Source: an uncultured Gammaproteobacteria bacterium
GTDB lineage: Bacteria; Patescibacteriota; Microgenomatia; Levybacterales; GWA1-39-11
DNA: 64,000 nt
Direction of reading: 5' to 3'
Assembly (NCBI GenBank): GCA_964504535.1
Contig: CAZDED010000007.1
Span: 12,353-76,352 of the forward strand
Position numbers and translations under genes: made by a program. A model generated the notes under the pieces. That model was given only the letters and a program-made list of their open reading frames with translations. It was not told the DNA's origin and did not search any database. How positions within the stretch are numbered: position 1 is the stretch's first letter; each line of letters begins with the position of its first letter. This document shows positions 944 to 50,112 of this stretch, piece after piece.

Positions 944-1735
944 ATGGAACTCTACCAGGTGATTATTCTCTCAATTGTCGAAGGACTAACCGAATTTCTC
1001 CCAATCTCTTCAACTGCACATCTGATACTTACATCCCACATGCTTTCAATACCAATGTCTGAATTTCTATCAACATTTGAAATTGCTATACAAATTGGAG
1101 CTATAGCCGCAGTTGCCGTCGTCTACTACAGAAAAATCCTTGAGAGCAAAGCTTTGTTTTATAAAGCGTGTATCGGATTTATACCTACTGGGATTTTAGG
1201 ACTCCTATTTTTTAAACACATCAAATTACTGCTTAATAGTTCATTCGTACCTGTTGCTGCTCTCTTTATTGGTGGAATTGTAATTATTGCAATTGAGATA
1301 TACTTTAAGTCAGTAGCCAAAAGTCACAAGACAGAAGACAATAGATTGAAAACATTGGATAAATTGAGCTATAAAGATGCGTTACTGGTAGGATTGATAC
1401 AGTCTATATCAATGATTCCTGGCGTCAGTCGCTCTGCTGCATCAATTTTTGGAGGTATGGCTTTGAAATTTGACCGCGAGGCTGCTGTTGAATTTTCATT
1501 CCTGCTTGCCATACCAACCATGGCAGCTGCAACTGGACTTGATATAGTCAAATCTGCTCAGGCTTTTACTTCAACTCAGGTCTTTGACCTTATTTTGGGG
1601 ATAGTTGTCTCTTTCTTTGTTGCACTACTTGTCATAAAGTGGTTACTTAAATACGTTCAAAAAAATAACTTTATTGGATTTGGAATTTATAGAATAGTAC
1701 TTTCAATAGCTTACTACCTCATTTTTGTAAAATAG
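944..1735 (+). CDS. uppP: undecaprenyl-diphosphate phosphatase (UppP/BacA)
   Basis: 263 aa polytopic membrane protein. The N-terminal motif VEGLTEFLPISSTAHL and overall layout match the BacA/UppP family. Confidence 0.9.
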   Translation: MELYQVIILSIVEGLTEFLPISSTAHLILTSHMLSIPMSEFLSTFEIAIQIGAIAAVAVVYYRKILESKALFYKACIGFIPTGILGLLFFKHIKLLLNSSFVPVAALFIGGIVIIAIEIYFKSVAKSHKTEDNRLKTLDKLSYKDALLVGLIQSISMIPGVSRSAASIFGGMALKFDREAAVEFSFLLAIPTMAAATGLDIVKSAQAFTSTQVFDLILGIVVSFFVALLVIKWLLKYVQKNNFIGFGIYRIVLSIAYYLIFVK

Positions 1736-1786
1736 AATGAGGGCCCGCCATAAAGACGGGCCCAAGGATCAGAACGTGCGATCTGA

Positions 1787-2161
1787 TTAGGAGGCCTCGG
1801 GGAGGCGTCCTCCCCATGCTCGCAGCTGCACGACACGCGCCTCGGATATCTCCAATTGGGAGGCCAACCTGACCTCCTGGATGACCTGGCGCGCCAATAG
1901 GTAAACTGCGTACTCGTCCCTGACTTCGTTGAGGCCAGAGCCGCCGAAGGGGACACCCTCGAGGTACACTCCCCCGTACCACGCGATCCGCCCCGCTCTG
2001 AGGCAAGAAGGCCTATTGGCCCACACCCTGGAAAGGGTTTCCTTGTGGTAGAGAGCTTCGAGCGCCTTCAGGCGCACGCTCTCGATGTACCGAGTGAGTT
2101 CATCGGACTCGCCGACGTAGTCCTCCCAGGGGAGGACTGATGACCATGTCGGATCATGCAT
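1787..2161 (-). CDS. hypothetical protein encoded in high-GC island 1
   Basis: 124-aa ORF with GC-rich codon usage, unlike the surrounding genes. No recognisable motif. Confidence 0.3.
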   Translation of the reverse strand: MHDPTWSSVLPWEDYVGESDELTRYIESVRLKALEALYHKETLSRVWANRPSCLRAGRIAWYGGVYLEGVPFGGSGLNEVRDEYAVYLLARQVIQEVRLASQLEISEARVVQLRAWGGRLPEAS

Positions 2162-2176
2162 GATGCCGGCCTCGAC

Positions 2177-2404
2177 TTACTCATAGGTGAGCGTCGGGTT
2201 GAGGACGGCAAACGCAAGCGCTTCCTTGTTGTCCTGCTTGAGAATAGCCTCGAAGGACTCCCTCAAGGTGTCAAAGACCCGATCGCAGAGCTCGCGGGTC
2301 AAGAAGAATAACTGGCTAGGCATGAACCTGCTCCTTTCTGGTGCCGCCTTAGATTGTGACGATTTTCGGTGCCAAACCGCGGCCTTGCTTTGAGATCCGA
2401 TCAT
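2177..2404 (-). CDS. hypothetical small protein in high-GC island 1 (start uncertain; internal Met gives 48 aa)
   Basis: The ORF lies 16 nt upstream of the 124-aa ORF in a different frame. It could be a separate small gene or a frameshifted N-terminus of the same gene. Confidence 0.2.
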   Translation of the reverse strand: MIGSQSKAAVWHRKSSQSKAAPERSRFMPSQLFFLTRELCDRVFDTLRESFEAILKQDNKEALAFAVLNPTLTYE

Positions 2405-2663
2405 CGGGTCCCGAATGAAACACTCGCTACCCGAATTAAGGTCTCTGAGACCAAGCGCTGCTTCTTTTTTATACGGAAAAATGAACTTGTGAGTTTTGAA
2501 GTAAAGAAAGATACTAAACGAAGTGAAACTAATTTACATTCCTTTTTTGCTGAATTCCCAGCAAATATACTTGCTTCGCGCGTTCCTACGGATAATACGG
2601 CTTCTTTCTTAGTGTGCATCGCACACAAAAAGGATTCAAATTAAAATTCTGAGGTATAAAAAA

Positions 2664-2873
2664 CTACATTCCCTTTTGTTGTATACCGAGGAGATATAGA
2701 ACAGCTTCCTTTTTATAACGGCGGTCTCCTCGTGAATTTATTCTAATTGCGGGTAATTTGCCTCTCTTACCCCATCTTTTGATGGTAAGTGGACTAACAC
2801 GAAGGAGTTCTGCTACTTCTCTTACTGTAAGTAGATCTGGAAGATTCTCAATTGATATATTTTGATTAGCCAT
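2664..2873 (-). CDS. helix-turn-helix DNA-binding protein (MerR/excisionase-like HTH_17)
   Basis: From the internal Met (MANQNISIENLPDLLTVREVAELLRVSPLTIKRWGKRGKLPAIRINSRGDRRY) this is a classic excisionase/MerR-type HTH. The six-frame ORF extends to 2993, but that extra N-terminus overlaps the conserved repeat element and looks non-coding. Confidence 0.55.
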   Translation of the reverse strand: MANQNISIENLPDLLTVREVAELLRVSPLTIKRWGKRGKLPAIRINSRGDRRYKKEAVLYLLGIQQKGM

Positions 2874-5875: not shown

Positions 5876-7078
5876 ATGCCTAAAAAAACCCTTTTAACAA
5901 CTGTCGTGGTTCTTCTTCTTGTAAGCGTCATTGCGTACGCCTTTATACTCTATGGAAAGGGATACCGTCTCAATTTTTCAGGCAAGGGAAATAAGATTTT
6001 GGCAGGAACCGGTCTTCTTGTTCTGACAAGTACCCCGAATGGTGCACGCGCATACATTAATGACAATTTAACAACGGCAACAGATGACACCATCAACCTT
6101 CCTCCCGGAGAATACGATGTAAAAATTGAGAAAGACGGATACTACCCATGGAAAAAACATATTGTTCTTAAAAATGAAGCTGTAACTAAAACAGATGCGG
6201 TTCTTTTCCCCGTAGCACCAAAGCTTGAAGGAGCAACCGTTCTTGGAGCTGAAAATCCAGTCGTTGATCCGACCGGAGGCCTGATAGCATATGAGGTTTC
6301 CTCCTCCTCTGCTGAGAATAATGGGCTATATATTCTAAATTTAGGCAAAGGGTCGATTCTCCCGTTTGGAAGTTCTCCCCGCCTTATCGCTTCAGATAAA
6401 TTCGATAACTTCTCAAAAGCGAGAATTGAATTCTCACCCGATGGACAACAGCTGTTAGCATCAATCTCTACTCCCTCACAGGACAGGATTTATCTTCTTA
6501 AAACCGATACGTTAAATGTAGAGCCTCAAAATGTTACGTTTACCGTTGAGCAGGTCAGAAAACAGTGGTCTGCCCTCAAAATTCAGCTGGATCAAAAATT
6601 TGCCCTTGCTCTTCCATCTGCCTCTCGCAAATTTATACTGGAAAACTTTGAAAAGGTTCAACTTTCAGCTGAGGGGGACAAACTGCTCTACATTGCTTCT
6701 CAGAGTGCAACGATGCCTCATTTCATAAAACCATCACTCCCATCAACCAACTCAACTCCCGAAACCAGAAATATAGTAAAAGGAGCGGCTTATGTATACC
6801 AGATAAAAGAAGACAAGAATTACCTTCTCTACCAACCTACTGATGGGGAAGTATTACCTAATTTTATCTGGCATCCATCCTCTTCACACGTAGTATTCAT
6901 ACAGAACAAAAGAATATTTGCGATGGAATATGATGGGGGAAATAAGACTACTTTATACGCTGGACCATTTGATCCTACTTTTCTATATGCATGGCCTGAT
7001 GGATCAGGACTTATTATTCTTACTAATTTCAATGATGAAACAGTCCCAGCTAACCTCTACCGCATTGGCCTGAGGTAA
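5876..7078 (+). CDS. PEGA-domain protein with C-terminal beta-propeller-like region
   Basis: N-terminal TM/signal, then a PEGA motif (GARAYINDNL...LPPGEYDVKIEKDGYYPWKKHI). The C-terminal part has TolB-like repeats (WHPSSSHVVF, AWPDGSGLII). Confidence 0.55.
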   Translation: MPKKTLLTTVVVLLLVSVIAYAFILYGKGYRLNFSGKGNKILAGTGLLVLTSTPNGARAYINDNLTTATDDTINLPPGEYDVKIEKDGYYPWKKHIVLKNEAVTKTDAVLFPVAPKLEGATVLGAENPVVDPTGGLIAYEVSSSSAENNGLYILNLGKGSILPFGSSPRLIASDKFDNFSKARIEFSPDGQQLLASISTPSQDRIYLLKTDTLNVEPQNVTFTVEQVRKQWSALKIQLDQKFALALPSASRKFILENFEKVQLSAEGDKLLYIASQSATMPHFIKPSLPSTNSTPETRNIVKGAAYVYQIKEDKNYLLYQPTDGEVLPNFIWHPSSSHVVFIQNKRIFAMEYDGGNKTTLYAGPFDPTFLYAWPDGSGLIILTNFNDETVPANLYRIGLR

Positions 7079-7120
7079 GTGGACTAAGGGGCGCAAAGCA
7101 AGCTTCACGCCCCGGTCAGG

Positions 7121-7579
7121 TCAGTTCTCTCGGGATTCCTCCGTTGGATGTTTCCATCGCCCATTTACCCATTCGCTGGGATCGACTCTCACCTTGGGGT
7201 GATAATCCTCATCCAGAAAACGTTGGCGTGCGATTTGAAACTGCCGCCTTTCGTCGTTCTGCCTTTCGGCATACAGACGGCAGATACGGTGGGTAACTCC
7301 CATGCATATCAGCGAAGCTGTGAAGCTTGCGATAAATATCACGGAATACCACCCGGACTCCTGGCTGGTGATCAACCCGCCCACTATGGCTGCGGCCGTG
7401 GGCCCGCCAAAGAAGACGCATACCTGAAGGATTTGGTATTTCCACTGCATCCTTCTGCCAGGTGTACGGTAGCCCATTGCCCCCGACAGCATGCAAAGCA
7501 AGCCGATCAGGATTATGGTGCTAGCCGCCAACTGGAATTCCGGCGTGCTGTAGAAGAGCGCGCTTTGATCCTCAGTCAC
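7121..7579 (-). CDS. hypothetical membrane protein in high-GC island 2
   Basis: 152 aa with 3-4 predicted TM segments. GC-rich codons. It follows the 180-aa ORF with a 3-nt gap, suggesting an operon. Confidence 0.4.
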   Translation of the reverse strand: MTEDQSALFYSTPEFQLAASTIILIGLLCMLSGAMGYRTPGRRMQWKYQILQVCVFFGGPTAAAIVGGLITSQESGWYSVIFIASFTASLICMGVTHRICRLYAERQNDERRQFQIARQRFLDEDYHPKVRVDPSEWVNGRWKHPTEESREN

Positions 7580-7582
7580 GTA

Positions 7583-8125
7583 CTAATCCGTTCCTTTTGT
7601 TGTGAGGAAACCCTCACTTGTATGCGGAAGTGTGCCGACGTAGATGACAATCCGCCCCCGGTAGTCGACGTACTGATCTATCTGTTTCTTGGCAGCTTCC
7701 GCTGCCACGAATTTGACGCTGTACGTCGTCTTGAGTTGGTTCTCATCCGAGGATGCTTGCGCATCCTTATTGTGGGCTTGGTAGACAACCTCCTTGGCTA
7801 CCTCGAACATCGTGTCGAGGAGCTGAGGATCCGGGCTGAAGCCCGGTGCTACGCAGGTCTCAAAGACCAAGCCACGGATAGTAACAACGGTACCATCCTC
7901 TCCCTGAACCGTGATGGTCTCAGAGAGTGGTTTTGTGACGGCTTTTGCGTTGACGCAATCGGCAGGAGCTGCTCCTACCGCAATTGCGGTGTTGGTGTTC
8001 TCCTCTTGGTTGGCCAGAGCCATTAGGGCGATGCCCGTTGTGGCAAGCACTGCCAAGAAAAGGACTGTGATGAAGGTGCGGGGTCCAAATGACATGATGG
8101 TTCCTCCCATAGAACCGCTAGGCAA
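7583..8125 (-). CDS. hypothetical secreted protein in high-GC island 2 (likely start at internal MSFGPRTF...)
   Basis: A signal-peptide-like N-terminus (FITVLFLAVLATTGIALMALA) is followed by a soluble domain. GC-rich codon usage. Confidence 0.4.
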   Translation of the reverse strand: MPSGSMGGTIMSFGPRTFITVLFLAVLATTGIALMALANQEENTNTAIAVGAAPADCVNAKAVTKPLSETITVQGEDGTVVTIRGLVFETCVAPGFSPDPQLLDTMFEVAKEVVYQAHNKDAQASSDENQLKTTYSVKFVAAEAAKKQIDQYVDYRGRIVIYVGTLPHTSEGFLTTKGTD

Positions 8126-8390
8126 AGCTTTGGGCTCTGCGATTTGTTAACTGACCTGTTGTTAATGTACAGACGCAGGACGCGTCTCTGATATGCAATA
8201 ACAATCAGGCCGCGCAATGCGCCAAGACATATATTATACCAAAAAAAACAACCAACATCAAAAACTATGGGACTAAATTCTTTACATTTAAGTCACAGAA
8301 TAATTTTTTGAAGCAAAATTTTCACAGGATATTATTAGCTTCAAATTAGTCTCACTTGATACTTATTTCCAAATACTTGATACTAAAGGT

Positions 8391-12000: not shown

Positions 12001-13458
12001 ATGAAATTTTCGGCAAAAATTATTTTTGTCTTTATTTTATGTGGTTTTTATCTTGCCACAGGAACCGCTTATGCCGATGACTTATCAAATGCAAGCGTAA
12101 CCCTCTCAACCTCACGACCCTCGGCTTCAAGTCCATTATCCGCAGCCGCCACTTCCTCAGACGGAATAATTTCGGTATTCAATAATGGATCCCGATATTT
12201 AGCTTCTGATTCAGCACGGATTATTCAAGGATCAAGTGGTCTTCAAATAGTTGGGGGGCTTCCGGTAGCTTCCCAGTCAGCGTCGCTAACAAGCGTCTAT
12301 CTAGGTTCAAGTGTGGGAGTCGCAGCAGGTGCTGGATCTGACATATTGCAAGTACCAATAACAGCAATGCACACGGTTACCTTTACAACGATAAGTTCGG
12401 TACCCAATGGAGGGAAAATAATAATTACCTACCCAGGCTCGGGCAATAATTCCGCTTCTCCTTCTGCTACAACATTTGCTTTTAACGGTCTTCCAAATTC
12501 AACTGCAGCGGTTAAAGCAGCCAACGCTACCGATTGTAACGCTGTGACCGTGAGTGCACCAACAATTACCTGCACGACAAGCGCAATCATCCCAGCGGCG
12601 ACTCAGGTGACAATTTTTATCGGATGCACAGCTGTTAGTGGATCATGTACTACTCAAGCTCCTTATTTGATAAATCCAACAAAAAGCAATCAATCAGCCG
12701 GAACAGCTGATTCTTGGAGAATTCAAGTAAGCACTGCAGATGGCTCCAATAATGTTATTGATTCGCGTACTCTTGCTGTTGGCACAATTGAATCGGTTAC
12801 TGTCCGTGCAAACGTCGACCCATCCCTCACTTTTACCATTGCGGGTATTAATAATGGTGTTGCGGTCAATACGAATAATACGACGGGGTGCCTGCAGACA
12901 GAGCTAACAAGTACTGGTATAAATGCAACTGCAACAGATGTTAATATGGGCACGCTAGCTAACTCACCAAGTGCTACCAATACAACTGTAAGTAATATTT
13001 CTGCCCAATTACTAACAGTGACTACAAATGGAGCTACAGGATATGTGGTGACAGCGACATCGTCTGGACACCTGAGAAATCCTTCTACGGGATTTTTCCT
13101 GACGGATGCAGCTACCCCACAAGCTTTCCCAGCCTCAGGAGCAAATTTCTATGGATTTCATGCCTGTGGCCTTGATACGTATAGCGCTGGAATAGGTACT
13201 ACCTTCTGGAATTCAAGTGCCTCAGATACTAATTGCAATACTTATATAACAGGTTCCTCGGGAAATATTTGTAAATATGGATGGCCTACAACTTCTACGC
13301 CAATTAATATTGCTTCTGACACAACGGGACCAATAGGAAATGCTGTTGTTGCGGGAAGCGGCTTAACCTCAGTGAGCTATGCAGCTGGTGCTGATCCAGC
13401 AGTACCTCCGGGACAATACACGACTGTTGTGACTTACGTAGCAACTCCTTCATTCTAG
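12001..13458 (+). CDS. secreted WxL-like domain protein (Tyr variant), paralogue B
   Basis: 485 aa with a signal peptide. GATGYVVTATSSG and the C-terminal PPGQYTTVVTYVATPSF match paralogue A. The N-terminal motif LSTSRPSASSPLS...VFNNGSRYLASDSA is also shared with A. Confidence 0.55.
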   Translation: MKFSAKIIFVFILCGFYLATGTAYADDLSNASVTLSTSRPSASSPLSAAATSSDGIISVFNNGSRYLASDSARIIQGSSGLQIVGGLPVASQSASLTSVYLGSSVGVAAGAGSDILQVPITAMHTVTFTTISSVPNGGKIIITYPGSGNNSASPSATTFAFNGLPNSTAAVKAANATDCNAVTVSAPTITCTTSAIIPAATQVTIFIGCTAVSGSCTTQAPYLINPTKSNQSAGTADSWRIQVSTADGSNNVIDSRTLAVGTIESVTVRANVDPSLTFTIAGINNGVAVNTNNTTGCLQTELTSTGINATATDVNMGTLANSPSATNTTVSNISAQLLTVTTNGATGYVVTATSSGHLRNPSTGFFLTDAATPQAFPASGANFYGFHACGLDTYSAGIGTTFWNSSASDTNCNTYITGSSGNICKYGWPTTSTPINIASDTTGPIGNAVVAGSGLTSVSYAAGADPAVPPGQYTTVVTYVATPSF

Positions 13459-15203: not shown

Positions 15204-15365
15204 ACCTTAAGTATAATAATCCAATAACCCAATAATCAAATGTCAAATTATTTAATTTATCTTGATATTGGATTATTTTTAATTTGTATATTAGATTATT
15301 TGTATATTGAATCCCCGGGCTTTCGCCCGGGGACGGTGGTGCTCTTTCGAGCATGTTCTCGCAGG

Positions 15366-15668
15366 TCATGCGTGGCCGGTACTAAGATGCTGCCAGCTCA
15401 GATCTTGAGGTGGATCCGATACGATCTCTGTTCCCTCTTCCAAGAGGTTATCAGCTACTCTTGCAAGCAGCTGAAGGGTTCGGCGCCTAGAACTAGGAGC
15501 CGCCTTGATGAGCACTTTGGCATACTCACAAACGGCGTCTGCGAGGGCGTCACCCGCGGAGATCTCCTCCCACTCATTTCCACTTGCAATGGCGGCAGCT
15601 ACCGCTGCCTTATCCAGCGCAAGCAATTCTTTGGTGTAATTTGACCGCCAGTCATGAGGCATGATCAT
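15366..15668 (-). CDS. hypothetical protein in high-GC island 3
   Basis: 100-aa ORF with GC-rich codons and an Ala/Leu-rich, helical-looking sequence. No motif recognised. Confidence 0.3.
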   Translation of the reverse strand: MIMPHDWRSNYTKELLALDKAAVAAAIASGNEWEEISAGDALADAVCEYAKVLIKAAPSSRRRTLQLLARVADNLLEEGTEIVSDPPQDLSWQHLSTGHA

Positions 15669-15703
15669 CTCCCTTGCTGGTTTACCAGCTTGTTTGTACC
15701 CGC

Positions 15704-16144
15704 CTACGCGGTTGGGCTTTGCTCATCCGGCCGGAGGGCGCTGAGGCATTCCTGGACGGTGACCTCTCGAAGTCTCTTTCCGCACTTCTTGAGAAGTTCG
15801 ACCTGGAACTGCTGGATCCAAAGGCACGGGATCTGCTCTAGGTCCCTCGTGATTACTTCTCCCAGTCCGACCTGGAGCACATGAAAGCCTTGTGCCCGCA
15901 GAAAGCGGAGTTCCGGGCAATTGTTTGCCAGGCGGGGATCTCCTACCTTTTTGTCGGCAGGAAGGCTCCTGAGCCAGGTCACGAATTCCTCGTCAGTTTC
16001 CATGACCCTGGTGATCTCTTCAACTTCAGACATTACTACTCTCCTTGAGTTGTGTACTCGTGATGTGCGTGCCCCACCGCTTGTAAACGGTGTGGCTTGA
16101 CCTGCGTTGTTAATGTGCTGTTGGAACAGCACCTTCATACGCAT
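15704..16144 (-). CDS. hypothetical protein in high-GC island 3 (start uncertain; internal MSEVEEITRV... gives about 109 aa)
   Basis: ORF in GC-rich DNA between two perfect GC palindromes (15311-15330 and 16147-16164). Confidence 0.3.
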   Translation of the reverse strand: MRMKVLFQQHINNAGQATPFTSGGARTSRVHNSRRVVMSEVEEITRVMETDEEFVTWLRSLPADKKVGDPRLANNCPELRFLRAQGFHVLQVGLGEVITRDLEQIPCLWIQQFQVELLKKCGKRLREVTVQECLSALRPDEQSPTA

Positions 16145-16307
16145 GCTGCCGCCAGCTGGCGGCGCGGATTGGAACTGTTCTAACGTTGGGATAATTATAT
16201 ACCTTAGGAAGACTCAAATCAAATTACTCTAGGATACGCTTAATGGAGAATGGCTGATGGTTAAGGACTAATATCTAAACTATTGTCTATTGTCTAGTGT
16301 CTTTTGT

Positions 16308-48513: not shown

Positions 48514-48938
48514 GCGTATACTCGTTAGGCTTGAGGTTAGAGAAGGCAGCTTTCATAAATTCTCCCCCAAATTTCCAAAAGCTCTCTTCCCTGATCTTGA
48601 AGATTAGGAAAGTAGTATGAAGCAGACTATCCAATAGCTGGATAACTTTGCTTATAAGTACCACTTTGTTCTTTGACAATTGGTATACAGAAAAATTATT
48701 TCGGTTGACACTTTGGTGTCGGATTGAGCGTTCCGTTGGCATGAAAGCTGCACAACGGGCCGCTCAACCCGGCACTGTAAGTTACAACCGGAAAAACAAC
48801 ACTAAGGAGAAGAACATATTGGAGGCTCGATCTCCGCCCACCATTCCCCAACCGCAAGGCTGGGTCAAAAGAATGTAAGCGGTATCGTCCGCCTACATTC
48901 TTCCACTAAGTCAGAGTTCAGTTCCGGAGGAAAACACC

Positions 48939-49949
48939 TTGTCCAAGACTTGGATCGCTATCACCTCCATCGTTCTGACGATGGCCGTGATGATCGGTGG
49001 AGGCTGGGTTATCGCCCACCTTCCTAGCACGTCCGCCAACGCGGACGGCCCCGACGGAAGCCCCACGGCTTCCGCCACCGCGACCGTCACTGCGACGGCC
49101 ACCCAGACGCCCACTCCGGGCACCGACAAGAAGGACCAGCCGCCGGTGCCAAGCGCCGTCTGCCGGCTCGACAAGGTGGGCACATTCGCCGAGGTATCCT
49201 CGGCTGGCCCACAACGCATCGAAGTTGGCGGGGGGGGAACCCAGCACGTTGACTTCTATCCTGACCGCGGTGTCCCATCCGTTTCCTACATCGTAGGACC
49301 CGGTAAGGTCATAGTGGCACATGGATTTGGGAGCATCTGGGAGGGCAACCTTCCGGACTGTGCTCAGTTCAAATGGGTCGCCGATGCGACCGAATACGCT
49401 CTCGGCAACGTGGGCAACAATCGGCCGGACCGGCTTACGAAAGGTCACAGCGGCATCGTCATCGACATGAGGAGCAATCCTCCTGAAATCGTTGCGAACG
49501 CTCTCGGCCTCAACACGGCGCAGATCGTAAATCTGCTCGCAAAGCACGTGAAGGGAATGGAACTCACCGATAGCCAGAAGCAAATGCTGATGACTATCCG
49601 GATGGCCGCCGGCGTCACAACGCCTGCCGCCGGATCCAATACTGCTACGTGCAGCGAAGGTACCCGCGCCGACCACAAGCCGGCCAAGGATACCGCGTGG
49701 GACATTACGCCTACAGACTCCTTCCGCGTGGTCAACGTCTGGTCCAACCAGCGTGACCCCAACCTGGGAGACCACAAGCTCCTTCTCAAGCCTGGTGAGA
49801 GCGCAAGCCTCATGGGCGGCGGCGGTGCCGCCTGGTCCTTCCCGGCAAGCTGTGGCGACGCTGCCCAGGCCGCCTATGAGGCCAATACGAACCCGGCCAT
49901 AAGCCTGGCTCAGTACAAGGCCTACGTCGAAAAGGGCACCATGCCCTAG
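48939..49949 (+). CDS. hypothetical membrane-anchored protein in high-GC island 4 (N-terminal TM, Thr/Pro/Ala linker, C-terminal domain)
   Basis: 336 aa with strongly GC-rich codons (about 65% GC region). The strand was chosen because it gives TM, linker and globular domain; the antisense ORF looks like noise. Confidence 0.4.
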   Translation: MSKTWIAITSIVLTMAVMIGGGWVIAHLPSTSANADGPDGSPTASATATVTATATQTPTPGTDKKDQPPVPSAVCRLDKVGTFAEVSSAGPQRIEVGGGGTQHVDFYPDRGVPSVSYIVGPGKVIVAHGFGSIWEGNLPDCAQFKWVADATEYALGNVGNNRPDRLTKGHSGIVIDMRSNPPEIVANALGLNTAQIVNLLAKHVKGMELTDSQKQMLMTIRMAAGVTTPAAGSNTATCSEGTRADHKPAKDTAWDITPTDSFRVVNVWSNQRDPNLGDHKLLLKPGESASLMGGGGAAWSFPASCGDAAQAAYEANTNPAISLAQYKAYVEKGTMP

Positions 49950-50112
49950 ACATGAGTACCTCTGTATACCAAGCTCGGGATGCCCCCTACTGGGGGGCAT
50001 CCCGGCACAAGAGGGGAGGCGCTAACACCGCCTTCGAAGAACAAACCGGGCTTGCCCGGCAGAATGCTTCGGAGTCGATTGCCTCCCCCCTTTCCCCCTG
50101 TACATAAATATT

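Follow-up and report, generated by a model that had tools for sequence, protein, structure and literature searches.

A GC-rich island beside uppP in a Candidatus Levybacteria genome: the probable remnant of a long-resident two-gene operon

A short GC-rich segment lies between the uppP gene and a gene with a helix-turn-helix (HTH) domain of the HTH_17 type in a 64,000-nt stretch of DNA from Candidatus Levybacteria. The whole stretch is here called the window, all coordinates refer to it unless a locus is named, and the segment is termed island 1. Taking the explanation as a whole, island 1 is probably the decaying remnant of a GC-rich two-gene operon that has been resident in one clade of Levybacteria for a long time. 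In its intact form, known from relatives and a conspecific strain, the operon runs from a promoter over a structured leader and a Shine-Dalgarno (SD) sequence into g102 (a small, putatively all-beta orphan of probably 124 aa) and g178, and ends at a terminator facing uppP. In the window strain three lesions have struck it: the exchange of about 480 nt for about 190 nt of filler made up of duplicated scraps of the HTH gene 3' end, a 1-nt deletion that shifted the frame of what remained of g102, and a CAA to TAA change at codon 49 of g178. The cassette may have entered the ancestor of the sub-clade from a GC-richer lineage. Its coding sequence would since have been kept GC-rich by a force tied to coding sequence, for example codon-level selection, and the intergenic DNA around it would have drifted to the AT-rich equilibrium.

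Composition and boundaries of island 1

The initial annotation had described an abrupt shift to about 60% GC over some 725 nt, and this was borne out by sliding-window GC, a breakpoint fit and a hidden Markov model (HMM). The maximum-likelihood two-breakpoint fit placed the bounds at 1739-2461, with 58.8% GC inside and 37.5% in the flanks. A two-state HMM returned the same bounds (0.59 GC), and in 200-nt windows the GC content peaks at 0.645. GC at third codon positions (GC3) amounts to 0.77 in island 1 as compared to 0.23-0.35 in the adjacent genes, and the amino acids Gly, Ala, Arg and Pro (GARP) are enriched (0.30 versus 0.22). Island genes display GC3 values of 0.53-0.77, with C3 > G3 and A3 ~ T3, and look like ordinary genes from an organism of about 60% GC. 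The same third-position pattern, being that of ordinary GC-rich genes, led to the rejection of A-specific mutagenesis, as in diversity-generating retroelements (DGR), as the cause of the GC-richness.

A chimeric assembly, or a contaminant joined to a Levybacteria contig, would produce just such an abrupt change of GC. The junction between island 1 and uppP was found again, together with the exact 124-aa product of the larger island ORF, in SRR12487035 and SRR12487046, and a near-identical island 1 was recovered in ERZ724528, ERZ28655916, ERZ27309396 and SRR6747781. Orthologous junctions occur in diverged relatives. Because at least seven independent assemblies, for which different assemblers had been used, show identical junctions, and relatives show orthologous ones, the check for a chimera that the initial annotation had called for could be settled without read mapping, and an artefact of this kind is next to impossible.

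One gene split by a nonsense codon

The gene g178 and its interruption are located as follows.

1787-2323, minus strand: g178, 178 codons with the stop at 1787-1789; interrupted, a pseudogene in the window strain
2177-2179, minus strand: premature in-frame TAA in place of the Gln49 codon CAA of g178
1787-2161, minus strand: residual 124-aa open reading frame (ORF), which begins after the nonsense codon at the internal Met55

Two small minus-strand ORFs had been noted in the island, and both exist: 1787-2161 (124 aa) and 2177-2404 (75 aa, of which the homologous part starts at ATG 2323). They are, however, fragments of one 178-codon gene together with a truncated and frameshifted neighbour. The two share a frame and are separated by one TAA and 5 codons. 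A protein search returned three homologues of 177-178 aa, and a single-frame translation of 1787-2404 shows both window ORFs to be collinear with these proteins. The homologue sequence TYEQVEAGIMHDPTW corresponds to TYE*VEAGIMHDPTW in the window; P0002, P0003 and P0005 contain TYEQVEAGI at the site of TYE*VEAGI, and in the DNA alignments this corresponds to CAA versus TAA. P0005, an intact protein of 178 aa encoded in four other samples, is 100% identical to the window g178 save for Gln at the stop position, and the lesion is therefore a CAA-to-TAA nonsense mutation. The nonsense allele is limited to the window and the loci L001 and L002 (related loci are designated by L numbers), whereas all relatives, including conspecific strains, carry CAA. 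The orthologues of g178 range from 83 to 36% identity.

Two adjacent small ORFs on the same strand, and a nonsense allele present in three assemblies, could also be taken for a functional pair (toxin-antitoxin-like or a split gene) or for a gene expressed by readthrough of the TAA. Against this, both ORFs are collinear with a single 178-aa protein in all relatives, they have no match in PADLOC, Pfam or PHROGs, and the operon has been deprived of promoter and leader as well as of the first gene. Among the host ORFs TAA is the most frequent stop codon (24/40), so that a recoding of the g178 TAA would not be sensible. A functional pair or readthrough is thus highly improbable.

The residual 124-aa ORF would lose helix 1 and strand 1 of the predicted structure (helix 10-30, strand 35-40, helix 47-51). 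Gene callers output the g178 fragments as two hypothetical proteins, and the 124-aa product is present in public protein sets. The island 1 locus should instead carry a pseudogene annotation.

Loss of the 5' part of the operon

In relatives the DNA homologous to island 1 extends upstream into a second gene (g102/g124) and a leader. Two segments mark the place of this part in the window.

2349-2461, minus strand: 3' remnant of g102/g124, its last ~38 codons; a 1-nt deletion near 2398/2399 shifts the frame
2462 to ~2640 (within the segment 2462-2663), minus strand: AT-rich filler at the place of promoter and leader and of the 5' two-thirds of g102/g124

In the conspecific locus L063, the HTH segment is identical to that of the window, as is the 5' end of g178 except for the CAA, and the upstream gene, leader and promoter are intact. 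Compared to L063, the window is without ~480 nt that hold promoter and leader as well as the 5' two-thirds of g102/g124; ~190 nt of AT-rich filler stand in their place. The remnant was recognized by tblastn (72% over residues 62-86) and was aligned to L003, L004, L012 and L063. Within the filler, degenerate duplicates of the HTH gene 3' end were found at ~2534-2611 by local alignment and by BLAST to L012, and a third partial copy straddles the junction at 2460-2473. The filler copies correspond to the last ~50 nt of the HTH gene, are of the L012 allele type and contain a 22-nt insert; the direct repeats D1, D2 and D4 are associated with the filler. These copies were left behind by illegitimate or unequal recombination; they are not the terminal repeats of an element. 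In L023, a stretch resembling the HTH 3'-end copies follows the HTH gene at ~12780-12860, as judged by eye.

The deletion allele is common to L001, L002 and L008-L011, and the nonsense mutation in g178 came after the deletion. No promoter-like site was found on the minus strand in 2324-2660. With its lesions evident from the DNA itself, the island 1 locus is most likely silent and non-functional in the window strain, non-expression being our inference. It must be considered, however, that a GAGG is located 8 nt before Met55, and a cryptic promoter could drive expression of the 124-aa fragment.

The intact cassette and its structured leader

The intact cassette of the relatives begins with a promoter of the extended -10 type (TGnTATAAT), followed by a 5' untranslated region (UTR) of ~135 nt, a GGAGG Shine-Dalgarno sequence, the first gene, g178, a short hairpin and the terminator. 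The 5' UTR comprises hairpin P1, an invariant 24-nt block (TTGCTCTTTAACAGAACGTGCAA) and the long hairpin P2; the invariant block ends just 5' of the SD. Leaders of ~135 nt are located at the following positions.

L012: 12676-12810
L003: 2208-2340
L004: 69-205
L016: 13257-13390
L005: 2074-2200
L063: 600-737, minus strand
L064: 47-180

P1 and P2 together contain 34 pairs, 18 of them with compensatory changes, and are 94% paired. This pairing was not reached by any of 500 shuffles, and slid controls were 41-55% paired. The leaders of L003, L004 and L005 gave no Rfam match at E <= 1, and Rfam applied to the whole window returned the tRNA-Thr only. The leader is absent from the window and has no second copy in any examined locus; a metagenome scan for its motif yielded two additional loci only. 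The leader is a candidate for a new cis-regulatory RNA or operator.

A hairpin by a conserved ATG was considered as a riboswitch expression platform and was dropped, because the stretch encodes a peptide, xSALKPWGEVVICPDLPGM, that is conserved while its codons vary synonymously at third positions. TTG, GTG or ATG is found at one aligned column in all lineages, a few bases 3' of the GGAGG. Based on the conserved peptide and the aligned starts behind the GGAGG, the first cassette gene is probably 124 aa in length and not 102 aa. Both cassette genes are under purifying selection in the relatives, with dN/dS values of 0.15-0.28 (0.15-0.26 for g178).

The two hairpins of island 1

GC-rich perfect hairpins had been reported at the left edge and inside island 1, and both are present where they had been placed.

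1741-1763, minus strand: terminator-like hairpin, GGGCCCG-TCTTTATGG-CGGGCCC with the tail TCATTCTATT, between the convergent g178 and uppP
1799-1815, minus strand: inner hairpin, GGGGAGG-CGT-CCTCCCC, inside the codons of the WGGRLPE motif

The left-edge hairpin has 9 pairs counting G-U (terminator scan), folds with -26.6 kcal/mol and stands apart from shuffles (z = -5.6). Its stem is kept in L003, L004, L008 and L012 and its loop varies. In L004 it remains with the cassette although another gene separates the cassette from BacA. A GC stem-loop followed by a T-rich tail, placed where the transcription unit ends, gives it the make-up of an intrinsic terminator, and it is the conserved terminator of the cassette. 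The inner hairpin folds no better than its composition predicts (z = -1.2, with 27/200 shuffles folding equally well). It encodes the C-terminal motif WGGRLPE of g178 (W170-E176), which is invariant. On both counts it was rejected as an independent element.

What the cassette proteins may be

No matches were obtained for the ORFs of any of the islands in Pfam, PADLOC or PHROGs, and for g178 and its close homologues Pfam returned nothing at E <= 10. Among 1.84 billion representatives, a profile search detected 46 relatives of g178, of which only nine reached E <= 1e-10. When 20 distant relatives were scanned, PF03928 (HbpS-like) was the only Pfam match, in five of them, at 17-19 bits against a cut-off of 25. 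An AlphaFold model of g178 (pLDDT 71, pTM 0.69) was compared with known structures by Foldseek, and the best matches were EfgA (6bws), a DUF336 protein (4nkp), Ybr137w (4clc) and ORFY (2a2l). The family shares a conserved C-terminal core, A..KA...P..L..GD..W.GGV...GI..G.SG....DE, which may resemble the core of DUF336. A profile search of the PDB with a 23-sequence family alignment gave only a chance match to ZUFSP (E = 0.8).

The sub-threshold Pfam matches and the structural comparison tentatively point to g178 as a remote protein of the HbpS-like/GlcG (DUF336) fold, not a demonstrated member of the family, and as such it would probably bind a small ligand. Doubt is raised by the weak Foldseek scores (E = 0.016-0.12, TM 0.37-0.54, on a model of pLDDT 71) and by the missing Pfam match of g178 itself. 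The first gene, g102/g124, is an orphan confined to the clade; its structure model was unusable (pLDDT 40) and no fold is proposed.

The neighbouring genes and the host clade

Island 1 is flanked by two low-GC genes.

944-1735, plus strand: uppP/BacA, convergent host flank of low GC (Pfam BacA E = 5.6e-71, GC3 0.30)
2664-2870, minus strand: HTH_17/MerR-type gene with a 68-aa core (HTH_17 PF12728 E = 1e-10, MerR_1 E = 2e-9, MerR)

The Pfam neighbours of island 1 are BacA, HTH_17, WecG and MreB. The window and CAZAJO010000004.1 encode the same MreB (100% identity), and metagenome-assembled genomes (MAGs) of Candidatus Levybacteria/Levyibacteriota have MreB proteins 78-94% identical to it. The host belongs to the Candidatus Levybacteria clade of the Patescibacteria, or candidate phyla radiation (CPR). 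Many MAGs that clearly fall into the Levybacteria/Patescibacteria by an MreB 89-100% identical to that of the window (L012, L013, L015, L016 and others) are labelled 'uncultured Gammaproteobacteria bacterium', which is probably a placeholder or wrong.

The initial annotation had correctly assigned an HTH_17 domain to the neighbouring gene and had taken the gene as a pointer to mobile elements. Together with the atypical composition and a tRNA-Thr 1.4 kb away, this would fit a mobile element or genomic island that had inserted recently and was accompanied by an excisionase-like HTH_17 gene. The gene itself argues otherwise. Across the clade its 68-aa product shows 93-100% identity, and with a single exception the relatives reach 98.5-100%. 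The GC3 of the gene, 0.23, is low like that of the core genome, and the gene also occurs at sites lacking the cassette in L015, L018, L019, L021, L022, L023 and L031. No integrase, transposase or recombinase was called beside the HTH gene or the island, neither in the window neighbourhood nor in the related contigs. Likewise, no flanking target duplications or terminal inverted repeats bracket 1739-2461, and the tRNA-Thr (235-308) is separated from island 1 by uppP. The cassette is moreover syntenic across saturated synonymous divergence. A recent mobile element is therefore very improbable, and the HTH gene is a core gene and not an excisionase; its role as a marker of mobility had to be given up. 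Its constant adjacency suggests that the HTH protein is possibly the regulator of the operon. The conservation of the HTH protein is exceptional for a small regulator, as in the same genomes MreB is 89-94% and WecG 41-62% identical.

The cassette is found between the HTH gene and uppP/BacA in L012, L003, L014, L016 and L064. In L065 its neighbour is BacA, and in L005/L007 it adjoins the HTH gene in another context. The site between the HTH gene and BacA is empty in L022 (about 145 nt) and in L023. A pattern scan of GTDB with the g178 alignment came back empty, a false negative, as residues of the L012 cassette lie outside the degenerate patterns.

Age of the cassette and persistence of its GC content

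In nine orthologues of g178 the GC3 is 0.63-0.78, as compared to 0.27-0.40 in BacA. Between the g178 genes of five deep lineages, 4-fold sites are at or near chance identity, and GC3 is still 0.63-0.78. The cassette is not recent, since lineages with saturated synonymous sites have it at one and the same position. Of the reading of island 1 as a foreign segment, the atypical composition and the absence from some relatives stand, but not a recent or mobile arrival.

Among window ORFs of 150 aa or more, GC3 is bimodal, with an empty gap at 0.40-0.55. The same GC mosaic is seen across the close clade, where up to 25-38% of some examined loci consists of islands and an island always adjoins a 400-aa gene. 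The GC excess tracks coding sequence: spacers between GC-rich units have 33-40% GC, and the variable unpaired columns of the leader are AT-rich.

This distribution bears on GC-biased gene conversion, by which the islands would be recombination hot spots whose biased repair raises GC3. There are signs of recombination at the islands, and the implied rate of weak-to-strong (W>S) changes per site is 16/38 in g178 versus 45/189 in BacA. However, the boundaries are abrupt (37% to 59% within ~100 nt) and follow the coding sequence, as conversion tracts would not, and non-coding positions inside the units are AT-rich, as are the spacers. Because the GC excess follows coding sequence, neither regional mutational bias nor gene conversion fits, and we regard conversion as improbable.

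In the search for a donor lineage, which the initial annotation had hoped to find, none could be named. All g178 relatives down to E ~1e-10 whose contigs were read lie in mosaic contigs with an AT-rich backbone. A uniformly GC-rich context (58% GC, beside an ATP synthase operon) was seen only for a 21%-identical protein at E ~2e-6. A scan of viral contigs, blastn against plasmids and tblastn against phages found no relative of g178 or of island 1 DNA, and a scan of viral contigs with the island 4 protein (see below) gave no match. The ultimate origin is most economically explained by an old horizontal transfer out of a GC-richer lineage.

Several observations weigh against a simple reading as maintained GC. 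Polarised third-position singletons of g178 comprise 32 strong-to-weak (S>W) and 16 W>S changes, which would also fit slow erosion; the equilibrium of ~0.65 implied by them comes from parsimony, which is biased under skewed composition. More generally, 'maintained GC' rests on few genes and on parsimony and Nei-Gojobori (NG86) estimates that perform poorly under such composition. The island genes (g178 and g102) have a dS of 0.26-0.47, below the 0.46-1.3 of the flanking genes compared. L003 and L004 are closest by 4-fold identity for BacA, but not for g178, and L064 carries a mosaic cassette with a window-like g102 and a distant g178. Alleles of a second island are 31-39% identical where the flanks are 98% identical. 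From the incongruence between gene tree and flanks and from the mosaic L064 cassette, it follows that lateral exchange among Levybacteria is frequent.

The same low dS, incongruence, mosaic cassette and divergent alleles are what would be expected from recurrent import, in which the HTH-uppP hotspot repeatedly receives cassettes from an unsampled GC-rich reservoir. The presence/absence polymorphism of the cassette and the HTH 3'-end duplications, which resemble recombination scars, also speak for it. A Levybacteria plasmid or phage, a GC-rich CPR sister lineage or the host organism are candidates for the reservoir, whose own composition would then be the source of the GC-richness. Evidence against such a reservoir is the lack of any relative in viral contigs or in phage and plasmid collections, as well as the AT-backbone mosaics in which the g178 relatives down to E ~1e-10 with contigs that were read are found. 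The cassette is moreover accompanied by its AT-rich promoter and conserved leader, and spacers of low GC separate the GC-rich units. On balance, recurrent import is rather unlikely, though a serious rival, and the decay of a long-resident operon is preferred.

With regard to the force that would keep a resident operon GC-rich, it may be, though this is a tentative and rather doubtful proposal, that the clade keeps two stable compositional classes of genes, in which clade-specific, mostly orphan transcription units, including the nucleoside diphosphate kinase (NDK) described below, are held at a GC3 of ~0.6-0.78 over periods sufficient for synonymous saturation, and the surrounding genes and intergenic DNA are at ~0.3. 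The force could be selection at the codon level, related to a particular regime of translation or expression, or selection on mRNA properties. If true, the islands would be a regulated gene class instead of fading foreign DNA, and in the intact form of island 1 an HbpS-like ligand-binding protein would be under the control of a new riboswitch-like leader.

Other islands of the window and related observations

Four more islands had been announced for the window. Three are clear, whereas the fourth is not, the rest being short, weak segments of ~50% GC.

7041-8223, minus strand: island 2, ORFs 7121-7579 and 7583-8125, a membrane protein and a secreted protein; position syntenic in many relatives
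15313-16167, minus strand: island 3, orphan ORFs of 100 aa and 146 aa; strong 3' GC hairpin at 15312-15333
48715-50100, plus strand: island 4, a secreted-looking orphan of 336 aa; strong 3' GC hairpin at 49976-50004 with a 12-bp stem

No similarity between the islands was seen, either in DNA or in protein. Island 2 is a hypervariable, replaceable cassette, in which homology breaks at ~7122 and ~8074; its low allele identity holds even versus L012, where the 98%-identical flank is the 400-aa gene.

Just beyond the left end of the window, the NDK of the clade is a GC-rich island gene as well (GC3 0.64; L001:4877-5326, L012:19818-20267). As a lead to a donor it gave no close outside relative, the next best being 57% identical (Archaeoglobus, Dehalococcoidia). 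The NDKs of other Patescibacteria in the examined loci have host-like GC and are 32-42% identical. Clusters of GC-rich units with spacers of 170-520 nt (33-40% GC) were observed at L012:16700-21017, L065:6000-9750, L016:17962-21017 and L022:15225-18082. They hold paralogous small proteins (QYPLD[SC]GWW occurs twice in L012) and a recurring membrane protein of ~75 aa. Apart from the islands, a perfect 8-bp GC hairpin, TCCCGCCT-CTTGC-AGGCGGGA, is located at 352-372, ~45 nt from the tRNA-Thr(CGT), where the local GC is 0.47.

Significance

In the window, island 1 is a dead remnant, and its direct functional weight is small. The architecture of this uncultivated CPR genome is unusual in that sharply bounded GC-rich coding units are set at conserved positions in an AT-rich backbone. 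According to standard amelioration theory, such GC contrasts fade. A stable bimodal GC3 would require codon-level selection or an unseen gene reservoir. The intact relatives also expose a well-supported, unannotated structured leader and a new pair of orphan proteins with one putative remote HbpS-like member. No description of GC-rich islands in CPR, Patescibacteria or Levybacteria was found in the literature, which was covered to a limited extent.

Comparison with known systems

Island 1 resembles the ORFan-bearing islets acquired by horizontal gene transfer (HGT) in its contrast of GC/GC3 and amino-acid usage, its presence/absence pattern, its orphan proteins and its position between convergent genes. 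Foreign DNA is usually AT-richer than its host. Island 1, in contrast, is GC-rich in an AT-rich genome and contains neither mobility genes nor repeats. Its compositional contrast furthermore persists past synonymous saturation without amelioration, and the GC-richness is confined to coding sequence.

The leader of intact relatives is similar to riboswitch-type leaders with its ~135-nt 5' UTR, two covarying hairpins and the invariant 24-nt block. It differs in having no Rfam family match, and in the window it is deleted. The HTH_17 domain and the small size are shared with excisionase/MerR-like HTH_17 proteins. Unlike these, the window protein has no partner integrase, is 93-100% conserved, is encoded by a gene of low GC and is also present where the cassette is not.

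As for g178, the size of ~150-180 aa, the predicted alpha/beta order and the several family members among the top Foldseek matches are in line with the HbpS-like/GlcG/DUF336 proteins. It is distinguished from them by an extra conserved C-terminal tail (WGGRLPE) and by its constant pairing with an orphan, beta-rich partner.

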